From Escherichia phage MIZ6, in the sequence record OR192075.1: DNA of 64,000 nt. One strand, written 5' to 3'. Within the stretch, counting starts at the first letter, position 1. The number at the start of each line of letters is the position of its first letter. Positions 23,337 through 47,195 of the stretch are shown one piece after another. The position numbers were made by a program, and so were the translations under genes. Under the pieces are notes generated by a model that was given only the letters and a program-made list of their open reading frames with translations, was not told the origin of the DNA and made no database searches.

Positions 23337-23346
23337 TATATAATCC

Positions 23347-23643
23347 TCATATCTCAGAGAATAGAATCTCTGTTAGCTTCACTGACTGCTCTCTGAATGT
23401 TAGCGTATACTCGAAAGGAAAGTCAACACCCAACTTCAAAAGAGAATAGCCTACCGCCTCTTTATGCTTATCGGTTATGGCGATCCTAACCAATTCCCGT
23501 TGAATCTCTTTAGGCGGTGAATGGATAGTAACACGGGTATCATGTAATGTCCAATCACCATTTCGAATTAAGATTAACGGTTTATCATCATTGAAGATCA
23601 CCGACCCCTTTCCGGTCGGTGAATGTTTTATATTAATCATCAA
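23347..23643 (-). CDS. hypothetical protein
   Basis: 98 aa ORF in a tight array. Confidence 0.35.
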   Translation of the reverse strand: MMINIKHSPTGKGSVIFNDDKPLILIRNGDWTLHDTRVTIHSPPKEIQRELVRIAITDKHKEAVGYSLLKLGVDFPFEYTLTFREQSVKLTEILFSEI

Positions 23644-25130: not shown

Positions 25131-25172
25131 TTTGATTCTCCTTAAGAAAGTGTGTTTCGTTTTGATGTGTGT

Positions 25173-25201
25173 AGTATAGGGGATCACCGATCCCCTGTCA
25201 A
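25173..25201 (-). promoter_or_regulatory. early-type sigma70 promoter with palindromic spacer
   Basis: Minus-strand TTGACA, GGGGATCGGTGATCCCC (17 bp), TATACT. Confidence 0.55.
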
Positions 25202-25210
25202 CAACTTTTT

Positions 25211-25474
25211 TTATGATTTTAGTGAATTAACCACTACATCAAAATGATGTACAGAGTACACCTTACGAAACACATACTCATCGTGTTTAGGAATAGCGCC
25301 TAACCGCTTTATTTCGCTCGCTGACACGATAAACCGTTTATCCGGTGCATTTACCTTATATGCTTCAACAACGCACGGAAAACGCGTTTTAGCGAGTTCG
25401 GGATAGTTTTCTGACTCCATCAGGACAATGAATACCCTGTTACATTGATTGTAGAATCCTGTTTTTGATTTCAT
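25211..25474 (-). CDS. hypothetical protein
   Basis: ORF-track entry 25211..25540 overlaps the upstream gene by about 100 nt; start tentatively moved to an internal Met. Confidence 0.3.
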   Translation of the reverse strand: MKSKTGFYNQCNRVFIVLMESENYPELAKTRFPCVVEAYKVNAPDKRFIVSASEIKRLGAIPKHDEYVFRKVYSVHHFDVVVNSLKS

Positions 25475-29103: not shown

Positions 29104-29438
29104 TTGTAACCCTCCTCTGAAAGCACATCCCAGATCGTTGCGTCAAGATGCATTAAATTCCACATAATAGAGTCATAACTACCGAAGCCAGAAGTAAAAA
29201 TTACATCACACTGGCGATATGTCTTATGAAAATCGGTGGCTGTCTCTGCATCAATCGGCATATCGTCACCGGAAAGCACCAGACATTTAAGAATCATAAC
29301 TCTGTTAGCCGTTGGCGCTTGCTTAGTCTTTTCAGCATATTTTTCGATGATCCGTTTTGCCTTTTCTTCTTTGATACGTCCAGACCAAATCCGGTTTCGG
29401 TATTGATTCATAATAATTTCAATCACATCATTTTGCAT
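29100..29438 (-). CDS. hypothetical protein
   Basis: 112 aa minus-strand ORF. Confidence 0.35.
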   Translation of the reverse strand: MQNDVIEIIMNQYRNRIWSGRIKEEKAKRIIEKYAEKTKQAPTANRVMILKCLVLSGDDMPIDAETATDFHKTYRQCDVIFTSGFGSYDSIMWNLMHLDATIWDVLSEEGYK

Positions 29439-29637
29439 TCTTCACGGTCTCCATAATTGTTTTGTAAGCCAGTTTAAGATGATCACCGAAAAACTTTGCG
29501 GTGTTACCCTTCGGATCGCGGAGCATGGTTTCTACGATCTCATCGGTAGTAACAATTTCTCCTTTCTTTGCTGCATGTTCTACCATATACTTCAAAGTTT
29601 CTTCGGAAGCAAGTGCTGCCGCTACTGGATTAATCAT
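29428..29637 (-). CDS. hypothetical protein
   Basis: 69 aa; promoter at 29667-29695, RBS GGAGAATCAAAATG. Confidence 0.4.
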   Translation of the reverse strand: MINPVAAALASEETLKYMVEHAAKKGEIVTTDEIVETMLRDPKGNTAKFFGDHLKLAYKTIMETVKNAK

Positions 29638-29666
29638 TTTGATTCTCCTTTGTTGTCGATGTGTGC

Positions 29667-29695
29667 ATTATGCTATACCCTATTCCGGTTGTCAA
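29667..29695 (-). promoter_or_regulatory. early-type sigma70 promoter
   Basis: Minus-strand TTGACA, 17 bp, CATAAT, leader CACATCGACAACAAAGGAG. Confidence 0.5.
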
Positions 29696-29700
29696 CACCT

Positions 29701-29735
29701 AAAAACGAAAAAGCCACCCTTTCGGATGGCTTTTT
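29701..29735 (-). terminator. rho-independent terminator (possibly bidirectional)
   Basis: Hairpin GCCACCCtttcGGATGGC flanked by an A-run on one side and a T-run on the other. Confidence 0.55.
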
Positions 29736-29965
29736 GATTATATTTTATTCACGTCCATTTGTATAGTAGTGTTTGAATCGACCTTTGCTAAACTAGTTAA
29801 ACATAGTAACCAATTCACCATCCCTTTCCAATGATAACACTTCCTCGTCTTAGACGGGTCTTCTGATTCGGCAGTAATTGAACACGCGAAAGTATGAGGA
29901 AGCCAAATAGTTGTGTTGATGCTAGTATTCTTTTACTTCTGGTATGTATCCCAATGTGACTAACA

Positions 29966-30361
29966 TTAAGCCAATCGAGTGAGTTTATAAATTGTTTTAA
30001 AGCATAGAGCTTTGATATCGTCTAAAACGCTCTGTAACGAGCTATCAACATCATTATAAATCTCACTAGCCATTTGCGTTAACTCTTGCAAATAGGCAAT
30101 TTCGCTCATCTCCTTGCGGACGACCAACGTTGGCCGATAACGACCAGTGATCCCAATATTGGTTTCAGTGAAATCATCAACCAATTCTTGCATTTCAAGA
30201 TAGAACTCTTCTAGAGCCTTATGTTTTGCATAAGATCCAGGACCAGTTACCCCAAAATGCGCAGAATGCATATAAGTAACACTCATCAGACATTCACCGA
30301 TAAAGCGGTCAACTTTATTATCTTTTCCATCTTCGGACGTCTTTCGAAAATCACTGAATTT
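29966..30361 (-). CDS. hypothetical protein (rI.-1-position)
   Basis: Start set at MKFSDFRK; the longer listed ORF would overlap rI. Immediately downstream of rI, as T4 rI.-1. Confidence 0.4.
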   Translation of the reverse strand, partial: KFSDFRKTSEDGKDNKVDRFIGECLMSVTYMHSAHFGVTGPGSYAKHKALEEFYLEMQELVDDFTETNIGITGRYRPTLVVRKEMSEIAYLQELTQMASEIYNDVDSSLQSVLDDIKALCFKTIYKLTRLA

Positions 30362-30653
30362 CATGTTCTCGATTCTCCATATTATGCAACATAACAAACT
30401 GTTGTGCGGCATATTCCCCCATAATAAAACACTGCTTAGAATCCATACATTTACTACGAGCATACATCTTCATAATATGGGCATGAAATTTCTGGCTGGT
30501 TTCAATGGAAGGAGATATTTTGTTTACATATACTATCATTGCACCGTCGAAATAATCAGTAAAGTCACCAGTTGGATCATATTGATCAGCACTGACACTT
30601 CCGACCGCAGTCAAGCATATTGCCGCTGTTAGAGTTTTACGAATAAATGACAT
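30351..30653 (-). CDS. rI: lysis inhibition regulator RI-like periplasmic protein
   Basis: 100 aa; N-terminal signal-anchor (LTAAICLTAVGSVSA), two cysteines in RSKCMDSKQCF; size and position (adjacent to tk) as T4 rI. Confidence 0.6.
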   Translation of the reverse strand: MSFIRKTLTAAICLTAVGSVSADQYDPTGDFTDYFDGAMIVYVNKISPSIETSQKFHAHIMKMYARSKCMDSKQCFIMGEYAAQQFVMLHNMENREHEIQ

Positions 30654-30721
30654 AAGTCATTCCCCCAGATTAAAAATATTCAGTTATATTTATAATCTGG
30701 GGCTTTATTTATGATTAACTC

Positions 30722-31318
30722 TTATTTGGTAGTACCGTCAATAAAATGTTTACGGCACACAGAGACATATTTATCCTCTGCACCAACTTCTATTTGAGCA
30801 CCATCGCGAATAACATTACCCTCTTTATCTACACGAAGGACCATTGTTGCTTTCTTGCCACAATGACAAATACCCTTCATTTCGACCAGTTTATCAGCAA
30901 ATGCCATTAATGCCGCAGATCCTTCAAATAGATTGCCCTGAAAGTCGGTGCGAAGGCCATAGCACAGTACAGGGATATTTGCATCATCGACAAGCGCACA
31001 CAAGCCTAAAACATGCTCTTTAGTCATAAATTGGGCTTCATCTACAAATACAGCATCAGGACGCCATCGATCCGGTCTACGCTTACCTAACGATTCACGA
31101 TAAACCAAATCGAAAAGATCATCCGATTCAGTGAAGGTGATCGCTGGAGCACTTAGGCCAATTCGGGAAACAACTTCACTTTCTGAATCTCGATTATCAA
31201 TCGCTGGCTTAAGAATTAATACTCGCATATCACGTTCGGTATAGTTATAAGCACTTTGTAACAGAGAAGTTGATTTGCCAGCGTTCATAGATGCATAGTA
31301 GAAATATAGTTGCGCCAT
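30722..31318 (-). CDS. tk: thymidine kinase
   Basis: 198 aa; P-loop MNAGKST, VFVDEAQF, C-terminal Zn motif CHCGKKA...CRKH typical of type II thymidine kinases. Confidence 0.9.
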   Translation of the reverse strand: MAQLYFYYASMNAGKSTSLLQSAYNYTERDMRVLILKPAIDNRDSESEVVSRIGLSAPAITFTESDDLFDLVYRESLGKRRPDRWRPDAVFVDEAQFMTKEHVLGLCALVDDANIPVLCYGLRTDFQGNLFEGSAALMAFADKLVEMKGICHCGKKATMVLRVDKEGNVIRDGAQIEVGAEDKYVSVCRKHFIDGTTK

Positions 31319-46026: not shown

Positions 46027-46500
46027 CTATTTGTTAAGCCCTTTAAAGCCAAACACTTTCTTTAATGCATGTTCGGTTATGATCTTAAACTCCATGTTAT
46101 GCTTTTGGCATAATTTCACGGCAGCTAACCATTTTTCAGTATTTTTTGTGTATGTCCATACTTCATGCATATATCGTTGCTTTGTCTTCGCGGTCATTCT
46201 TTTTGGCTTTTCCGGTGGCCTTGTCTCTTTAGCTGGTTTAACTTCCCATAAATGCTCCTTGCCATCATCAAACTTAACGTAAAAATCCATAAAGTATCTG
46301 TGTCTTTTTCCGTCGGTTGATGACTCATAAGGAATTACTACGGTCTCAGATCCCCATTTTGCAACTCTAGGATTGCGGTCTAAAAATTTCATTATATGTA
46401 ATTCCCAACTTGACCTGTAGACGATTTTTTTCAGGTCGCCTTTATACTTCTCAGGATTTTCAGGTCTATATTTACCCTTATATGTGTTGCAATTACCCAT
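46027..46500 (-). CDS. 4: head completion protein (gp4-like)
   Basis: 157 aa; GNCNTYKGKYRPENPEKYKGD...IVYRSSWE...VVIPYES...HRYFMDF...EVKP...KWLAAVKLCQKHNMEFKIITE parallels T4 gp4 as recalled. Confidence 0.75.
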   Translation of the reverse strand: MGNCNTYKGKYRPENPEKYKGDLKKIVYRSSWELHIMKFLDRNPRVAKWGSETVVIPYESSTDGKRHRYFMDFYVKFDDGKEHLWEVKPAKETRPPEKPKRMTAKTKQRYMHEVWTYTKNTEKWLAAVKLCQKHNMEFKIITEHALKKVFGFKGLNK

Positions 46501-47195
46501 TATACCACCTTCTTCTTGCAGTTGTCACCATGCCATCTAACATAATTTCCCTGATTGGCTGTTTTTCCACAATGAGGACAGGTGAAATACGGACGGGACT
46601 TTGACAATTCACTATATTTTTGTTTCATTTCTGGTGTGTTATGAATACGTTTCCATTTCTCTACGTTTTCTTGTGACAACTTTCTACCCTTACCCGCTTT
46701 AGAGATGTTGTCTCTCCATTCTTGTGTAATTTCTCTTGACGCAATATTTCTTTTATGTTCTTCTGTAAACACTCTACCTTTTAATGAAGCAGATAATTTC
46801 TGTCGATGTTCCTCAGACAATTTAATTCCTTTTCTCTTTCCTTTAGTTGCTTCTGATATTCTGCGTCTAGTCTCTTCGGATCTTTTTCTTCCTGTATGAA
46901 ATTTTCTTGAAGTCTCGACCGCAAGTTTTCTTACCCACTCAAATTGTTTATTGTTATAGTTGGTAGACCCCATCAATATTTTCGCCGCATGTACAACTCC
47001 GTGATGTGTTGGATGCATTTTTGCTAAAAGTTGATGAGCAACAAAATGTTCAGACCCCGTTAACTCCACTATATTTTCTGGACTATCATCGCCTCCCATA
47101 CAACGAGGAATAATATGATGTTTTTCTTTATATCCTTCAAGCGTTCTATGCTTTGCGCGTTCAATTAATCGATCATAATGTTTTTGATAGTCCAT
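46500..47195 (-). mobile_element. free-standing HNH homing endonuclease with NUMOD3 DNA-binding repeats (Mob-like)
   Basis: 231 aa; HNH core EKHHIIPRCMGGDDSPENIVELTGSEHFVAH followed by at least four repeats of G(R/I)K.SEE(T/H)(R/K).(K/R)IS; C-terminal Zn finger CPHCG...C; inserted between gene 4 and gene 53. Confidence 0.8.

Follow-up and report, generated by a model that had tools for sequence, protein, structure and literature searches.

Probable Remnant of a Long Hoc-Like Gene in the Non-coding Tail Downstream of rI.-1 in Krischvirus Genomes

The DNA considered here (the window) is a 64,000-nt stretch of Escherichia phage MIZ6 (OR192075.1), and the question that it raises is what occupies the ~230 bp at 29736–29965, between the stop codon of rI.-1 and the next intrinsic terminator. 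The window belongs to the genus Krischvirus (family Straboviridae). It is 100% identical to phage MIZ2 over the compared stretches, and the MIZ2 annotation, with coordinates common to both, is usable for it. Around the interval, identity is 100% to Escherichia phages MIZ2 and MIZ3 and 97–99% to RB49, JSE, GEC-3S, and about 50 other Krischvirus records. All genes of the neighborhood lie on the minus strand, in the order tk, rI, rI.-1, the interval, and a 69-aa ORF:

30722–31318, minus strand: tk (ORF list and annotation)
30687–30694, minus strand: exact match to the late-promoter motif TATAAATA, ~34 nt upstream of rI
30351–30653, minus strand: rI (Pfam Antiholin)
29966–30364, minus strand: rI.-1 (Pfam DUF5856, E = 2e-21; PHROG 858; annotated at the same coordinates in MIZ2)
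29966–29968, minus strand: stop codon of rI.-1, the upper bound of the interval
29708–29735, minus strand: predicted intrinsic terminator with a 12-bp stem, a 4-nt loop, and a T run (terminator scan)
29667–29695, minus strand: predicted early sigma-70 promoter, TTGACA-17-CATAAT, 11/12 consensus (promoter scan), serving the next gene
29428–29637, minus strand: next gene, the 69-aa ORF, beyond the terminator and promoter

In the MIZ2 annotation, the CDS-free gap that includes the interval (29638–29965; 328 bp) is the largest of the ~100 gaps between genes within the first 50 kb, where the next largest measure 309, 296, and 278 bp. The gap is genuine and ranks high for so dense a genome, yet it is no extreme outlier. 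Between the rI.-1 stop codon and the terminator (29735–29708), the sole minus-strand ORF of at least 20 aa with an ATG, GTG, or TTG start is a 27-aa chance ORF (29738–29821), in agreement with the preliminary description of this DNA, which had reported no minus-strand ORF there.

Intact Gene in the Same Slot of Related Phages

A sensitive blastn search with the interval yields near full-length matches in 50 records, and partial matches spread over a longer span in Phi1, G2248, Brandy, SSG23, SFHK24, UPWr_E1, and JK32. In the last six of these, the same slot holds a gene of 712–716 aa, which is annotated in G2248, Brandy, JK32, UPWr_E1, and SSG23 as a single 2.1-kb CDS (712–715 aa) for a "hypothetical protein" that extends from rI.-1 to the same terminator, after a spacer of ~22 nt. 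When the G2248 protein is used in tblastn, six full-length copies are found (73–100% identity). At E ≤ 1e-5, the search also detects 68 residues of the C-terminus in Phi1 and 28 residues of the N-terminus in 31 RB49-type records. The protein belongs to a Hoc-like family (see section Parent Protein and Its Meaning for Krischviruses), of which a collection of 5.8 billion proteins contains 15 clusters, all of 706–718 aa and with at least 58% identity. The most distant cluster (58% identity), from a metagenomic T4-like phage, occupies the same TK/Antiholin/DUF5856 slot, with different downstream genes. Homologs thus lie in the same slot of six records and of a distant phage, and the slot is therefore old and the presence of the gene ancestral. 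An IMG/VR search with the rI.-1 protein identified nine loci, one from a Krischvirus and eight from distant T4-like phages (55–58% identity), and none of the eight distant loci has a downstream Hoc-like gene.

The intact copies represent three allele groups (locus L003 476–2620; L004 2545–4692; L005 2495–4633). They have dN/dS values of 0.03–0.19, which indicates purifying selection, and the parent is therefore a real gene. Between the groups of G2248, Brandy, and JK32, dS exceeds 1 and the proteins differ by 22–27%; regions 4–6 kb off in the same phages are just ~4–8% different from the window. These values point to an old, fast-diverging or frequently exchanged gene, probably for a surface protein.

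The window retains parts of this gene between rI.-1 and the terminator, here given in the direction of reading:

29946–29965, minus strand: former spacer between rI.-1 and the Hoc-like gene, 20 nt (upstream-region alignment)
29943–29945, minus strand: ATA in place of the former start codon, which is ATG in every intact copy
29815–29945, minus strand: 5′ fragment, ~nt 1–130 of the intact gene (blastn, tblastn)
29801–29814, minus strand: junction 1, site of a ~1.7-kb deletion at an imperfect direct repeat of ~14 nt (aattggttactatg)
29784–29808, minus strand: middle fragment of ~25 nt, from codons ~620–631 (~nt 1860–1887 of the Brandy gene, codons ~620–629, ..VTMFNEFSK..; blastn)
29776–29783, minus strand: junction 2, site of a 222-bp deletion, where one of two 8-nt direct repeats (GGTCGATT) remains
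29745–29783, minus strand: 3′ fragment, the last 12 codons (GRFKHYYTNGRE) and TAA (alignment, tblastn)

The lesions at the 5′ end affect both the initiation signals and the frame. In the spacer, the ribosome-binding site is eroded (ATTGGGATAC vs. AAGGGGGA(A)TAC or AAGGAGGATTC of the intact genes), and the ATA in place of the start codon is common to all 13 aligned remnant-bearing genomes, including Phi1. The 5′ fragment is 81–86% identical to G2248 and 72–83% identical to Brandy and its relatives in blastn, and aligns with residues 5–40 of the G2248 protein in tblastn (78% identity, E = 4e-13). It carries a +1 insertion of A at ~29928–29929, because of which the old frame meets a TAG at 29922–29924, after seven codons; past the insertion, the translation reads ...TSINTTIWLPHTFACSITAESEDP... 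in the window vs. TSINTTIWLPHTFACSIAAESDDP in G2248.

The two junctions account for the remainder of the loss. Junction 1 unites ~nt 140 with ~nt 1860 of the gene; when the window is set beside the two parental sites of Brandy, these read AAGTTGATTACCATG (~nt 133–147) and AAATTGTTACTATG (~nt 1854–1867). Because the 5′ fragment is only 72–86% identical to the sequenced intact genes, this breakpoint cannot be placed to the base. The middle fragment is 88–95% identical to Brandy and SSG23 in blastn. At junction 2, GGTCGATT occurs twice in the intact genes, exactly 222 nt apart (1885/2107 in G2248; 1888/2110 in Brandy and SSG23). The 3′ end is well preserved: the original TAA is retained at 29745–29747, 85 nt through the terminator are 100% identical to G2248, and tblastn aligns residues 703–714. 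In all, 201 nt of the 2,148-nt gene survive and ~90% of the coding sequence is deleted. Three separate parts of the gene are present in colinear order and on the same strand, nearly every base of the interval is covered by this homology, and the ATA start, the +1 frameshift, the TAG, and the large deletions leave no intact translatable ORF.

The interval is thus very probably a pseudogene, the residue of a ~2.15-kb gene for a Hoc-like protein (712–716 aa) of putative capsid-decoration type, which was silenced by point lesions and then deleted, and which now has no function of its own beyond a place in the passive 3′ untranslated region (UTR) of rI.-1. That a few related phages keep the gene intact argues for ordinary gene decay, and for neither a regulatory RNA nor an endonuclease remnant.

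Among the three largest gaps, which are those compared, presence/absence polymorphism is found only at 29638–29965. The idea that other large gaps are similar scars was rejected for the two checked, the next largest in MIZ2 (25131–25439, 309 bp; 23337–23632, 296 bp). Both are collinear in 58 of 58 Krischvirus records, and most other annotations have extra small hypothetical-protein CDSs across them that are uncalled in MIZ2; they are probably missed small genes rather than scars. The 278-bp annotation gap (40582–40859) adjoins a second minus-strand TATAAATA motif at 40860–40867.

Transcription Signals, a Second Deletion Allele, and the Order of Events

The signals around the remnant suggest how the gene was once transcribed. 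The motif TATAAATA has only four exact matches within the 64-kb window. In all related loci that cover the region before rI (Brandy's excluded), the distant metagenomic contig among them, its sole sense-strand occurrence lies ~41 nt from that gene. The copy at 30687–30694 is likely the late promoter of a unit that comprises rI and rI.-1 and once included the Hoc-like gene. T4 rI is known to be transcribed late. A search for a late promoter immediately before the Hoc-like gene found only the noncanonical TATAAACT, inside the rI.-1 coding sequence, and no terminator was found between rI.-1 and the long gene, which is therefore plausibly the third cistron of the late rI unit. The terminator stands directly 3′ of the Hoc-like gene in the phages with an intact copy and is also annotated by the depositors of G2248, G2494, Makalu_001, and GEC-3S. 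As predicted from its sequence, it would formerly have closed the Hoc-like gene and would now close the rI.-1 transcript.

The stretch at 29667–29735 is intergenic and consists of a stem-loop followed by a consensus sigma-70 promoter of predicted activity, which is the arrangement of a promoter-early stem-loop (PeSL) cassette. In PeSL cassettes, as described in RB49 and Phi1, a stem-loop precedes the −35 box (Arbiol et al., 2010, PMC2839356; see also Comeau et al., 2014, PMC4122927). The likeness includes the hairpin immediately before the promoter and the location in a hyperplastic region, whereas both deletions of the scar end inside coding sequence at repeats, away from PeSLs. Because the endpoints lie inside the gene, the scar is explained as an ordinary short-repeat deletion rather than a PeSL-to-PeSL excision, and deletion at 8-nt repeats contrasts with the PeSL-mediated cassette excision proposed for the RB49 and Phi1 genomes.

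Phi1 carries a different deletion allele of the same gene. In this phage, ~90 nt of the 5′ end are fused directly to the last ~200 nt of the gene, and the junction consists of one copy of the 8-nt repeat GAAGACCC. UPWr_E1 has this repeat at nt 85 and again, 1857 nt farther on, at nt 1942, and G2248, Brandy, and SSG23 have it at the second site. Neither allele is nested in the other: nt ~93–140 and ~1860–1895 persist in RB49-type genomes and are absent from Phi1, and nt 1942–2110 persist in Phi1 and are absent from RB49-type genomes. The 3′ piece in Phi1 has further indels of 4, 1, and 1 nt. It includes the following annotated feature:

EF437941.1 (locus L002 2045–2173), minus strand: Phi1 ORF084.1, which equals the final 42 codons of the Hoc-like gene apart from one substitution vs. 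G2248

This ORF has been published as ORFan 84.1, unique to phi1 (Arbiol et al., 2010, PMC2839356). Its position is that of the scar in the window, between rI.-1 and the same terminator/promoter cassette, but it consists of a last-42-codon part that is largely missing from the window allele. By its sequence, Phi1 ORF084.1 is a pseudogene fragment, left when another deletion cut down the same dead gene, and no novel gene.

The ATG-to-ATA change and the +1 frameshift are common to Phi1 and the RB49-type alleles, and the simplest history is therefore that point lesions inactivated the gene in a common ancestor and that the deletions arose separately afterward. This order is argued from parsimony, and recombination between lineages could blur it. 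In such a history, an ancestor of the RB49-type Krischviruses would have carried the Hoc-like gene as the third cistron of the rI/rI.-1 unit, ending at the terminator (29735–29708). Point lesions (ATG to ATA, erosion of the Shine–Dalgarno sequence, and the +1 frameshift) probably silenced the gene first. Then ~1.7 kb and 222 bp would have been lost between short direct repeats, by replication slippage or illegitimate recombination, leaving 201 nt. The remnant would since have been read passively into rI.-1 messages, as their 3′ untranslated tail up to the terminator, drifting at an approximately neutral rate. In T4, deletions between short direct repeats are known from the classical rII deletion studies. 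The junctions of the scar resemble those deletions in that an 8-nt repeat, found twice in the intact sequence, is left once, whereas the mechanism here, slippage or illegitimate recombination, is read from junction structure alone.

Other Readings of the Interval

The variation of the remnant was compared with that of the surrounding genes. Twelve RB49-type genomes were aligned from tk to orf82, and the addition of Phi1 gives the 13 remnant-bearing genomes. The proportions of variable sites among the 12 RB49-type genomes are as follows:

Whole remnant: 11.3%
5′ piece of the remnant: 13.5%
Codon positions 1 and 2 of tk, rI, rI.-1, and orf84, pooled: ~3.5%
Codon position 3 of tk, rI, rI.-1, and orf84, pooled: 14.7%

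Since 11.3% of sites vary in the remnant (13.5% in its 5′ piece) vs. 14.7% at position 3, the remnant drifts at roughly the rate of third codon positions.

A functional cis-regulatory or structured RNA, such as a small RNA or a 3′ UTR element that stabilizes the rI/rI.-1 mRNA, would explain why the interval is retained, and the same remnant is present in ~50 records at 95–100% identity; in principle, these records could reflect retention for a reason instead of common descent. However, this identity merely equals the genome-wide identity within the genus, and the density of variable sites is close to the third-codon-position level noted above. In addition, relatives have the 2.1-kb ORF or, in Phi1, a different remnant in place of the interval, with rI and rI.-1 still intact. 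The minus-strand RNA of the stretch with the terminator folds better than shuffled sequences (z = −2.65), but z drops to −0.26 when the terminator hairpin is left out; folding stability was rejected as evidence for a structured RNA, as the value of −2.65 is owed entirely to the terminator. In the whole window, ARAGORN finds no tRNA or tmRNA gene and Rfam gives nothing at the gathering score. At E ≤ 1, Rfam matches in 29600–30100 are sub-threshold ones of leader or RNAI type (19–26 bits vs. thresholds of 47–55; the best, 25.6 bits vs. 55) that overlap the terminator, and apart from the terminator and a trivial palindrome, no internal repeats are present in the same range. A regulatory or structured RNA, which the preliminary description had considered, is therefore very improbable, and the view of the interval as a passive remnant is retained.

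An equally slight chance attaches to the view that the interval codes for a small protein, either a 44-aa ORF that appears in some annotations or the 27-aa ORF at 29738–29821. A derived A-to-G change at 29947 (minus strand) creates an ATG (GGATGCATACC) in 9 of the 13 aligned genomes, and because of this change the 44-aa ORF exists in those nine only; it is annotated as a hypothetical protein in GoldenSnicker (locus L026 1616–1750), and extra hypothetical-protein features are listed under the interval in FL20, FL37, FL38, FL15, PTE-Eco09, and SAP. However, this ORF runs out of frame through the 5′ end of the dead gene, and the ATG is missing in ECD7, G2494, Phi1, and the window, which has A at 29947 and no 44-aa ORF in its list. 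The 27-aa ORF is missing in Phi1 and, as read from the sequence, has no properly spaced Shine–Dalgarno sequence, and no translated piece of the interval matches a Pfam family. No conserved small ORF, which the preliminary description had named as the finding that would overturn its account, therefore explains the interval.

That the interval is a decayed homing-endonuclease gene like mobD, as the preliminary description had proposed by positional analogy with the T4 map (on which mobD lies downstream of rI.-1), has a negligible probability: none of eight six-frame, stop-to-stop translations of at least 20 aa matches a Pfam family at E ≤ 10, HNH and GIY-YIG nucleases included, the sequence is fully explained by homology to the Hoc-like gene, and 0 of 58 Krischvirus records have an endonuclease in the slot, so that a decayed remnant is upheld in the form of three Hoc-like gene fragments while mobD is dropped as its parent. 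Mobile endonucleases do occur in the MIZ2-type phage, elsewhere than the interval, since a homing-endonuclease CDS is annotated in MIZ2 at 46500–47195 (minus strand), between a head-closure gene and a baseplate-wedge gene.

Parent Protein and Its Meaning for Krischviruses

Searches of Pfam and NCBIfam with the intact 714-aa protein return no family, and its assignment to Hoc comes from several other results. Residues 478–698 match the C-terminal end of the profile of PHROG 1149, "Hoc-like head decoration" (E = 4e-11), and phmmer against the PDB aligns the capsid-binding domain of T4 Hoc (5vf3_Z, E = 7e-4). With hhalign, an alignment of 15 family sequences matches T4 Hoc over 68 columns (630–701 vs. 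303–370; probability 83%, E = 9e-6), and T4 residues Cys307, Trp310, Val311, Asp313, and Glu314 correspond to Cys634, Trp637, Val638, Asp640, and Glu641, which are invariant in the family. The core motif C-x-[WY]-W-V-x-D-E is thus conserved between the parent family and T4 Hoc, and by hhalign, phmmer, and PHROG the C-terminal domain is homologous to T4 Hoc residues ~281–376. The match to the Hoc of RB49 itself is marginal (E ~0.02–0.04; hhalign, BLASTP), and a search of the PDB with the family profile did not recover Hoc at E ≤ 0.01, though the single-sequence search found T4 Hoc.

The N-terminal part resembles a string of immunoglobulin (Ig)-like domains. In the AlphaFold2 model of the intact protein (mean pLDDT 75.6), residues 1–604 are all beta and, by reading of the strand pattern, would form about six sandwich domains, and the C-terminal domain is small, with helix and strand, and of low confidence (block-mean pLDDT ~31–64). 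The best PDB matches to the model in Foldseek are arrays of six Ig domains and the like (e.g., contactin Ig1–6 and sidekick Ig1–5; E down to 1e-18), and the protein also has sequence-level matches to phage Ig-like decoration proteins. AlphaFold2, Foldseek, and these matches thus agree on a linear Ig-like string in the N-terminal part.

The parent protein therefore resembles Hoc of T4-like phages in having an Ig-like string followed by a C-terminal domain of the T4 Hoc type. It differs in that Hoc of T4 and RB49 has three Ig-like domains vs. about six in the intact long protein (712–716 aa), and in that the window copy is a pseudogene stump and capsid binding by the intact gene product is a prediction. 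Canonical hoc is found at the 24.3–hoc–inh position throughout the 58 Krischvirus records, those of the window's phage and of the six phages with the long gene among them, which makes the long gene a second paralog of Hoc type. In contrast to canonical hoc in the hoc–inh locus, the long gene lies on the early-gene strand, downstream of rI and rI.-1. Canonical Hoc is unusually divergent in G2248 and UPWr_E1 (63–65% identity to RB49 Hoc). Second Hoc-like paralogs have been described in Serratia phage Muldoon and Enterobacter phage PG7 (Fokine et al., 2023, PMC10385173), and Krischviruses with the long gene resemble these phages in keeping canonical hoc besides. A role of the intact long protein in the virion, as a capsid decoration, is suggested by these similarities.

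A wider proposal, for and against which the case is evenly balanced, is that ancestral Krischviruses bore two Hoc-type fibers, a canonical one with three Ig domains and a long one with ~6, encoded in the late rI/rI.-1 unit, and that the two competed for or shared the capsid sites at hexamer centers. The long form would then have lost its activity and been deleted on at least two independent occasions, in the RB49 type and in the Phi1 type.

In itself, the interval is of little importance: it is dead DNA that needs no new mechanism. For annotation, the small "hypothetical proteins" called here and ORFan 84.1 of Phi1 are fragments or by-products of one pseudogene and not novel genes. The locus presents a clean, datable gene death in a hyperplastic region of T4-like genomes, by point inactivation and then deletions at 8-nt repeats. 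RB49 is a model phage, and its Hoc has been crystallized; by the comparisons above, it descends from phages with a second Hoc paralog twice as long. The scar thus points to an undescribed, recurrently lost second Hoc paralog in Krischvirus, and G2248, Brandy, JK32, SSG23, SFHK24, and UPWr_E1, which still carry candidate genes, offer a comparison set for the function of Ig fibers on the capsid. If ancestral Krischviruses did bear two Hoc-type fibers, the scar would be a molecular fossil of a long form that is still under purifying selection in a minority of phages, and these phages would provide a natural presence/absence system for the role of decoration with a long Ig fiber, for example in adherence to mucus or cell surfaces.
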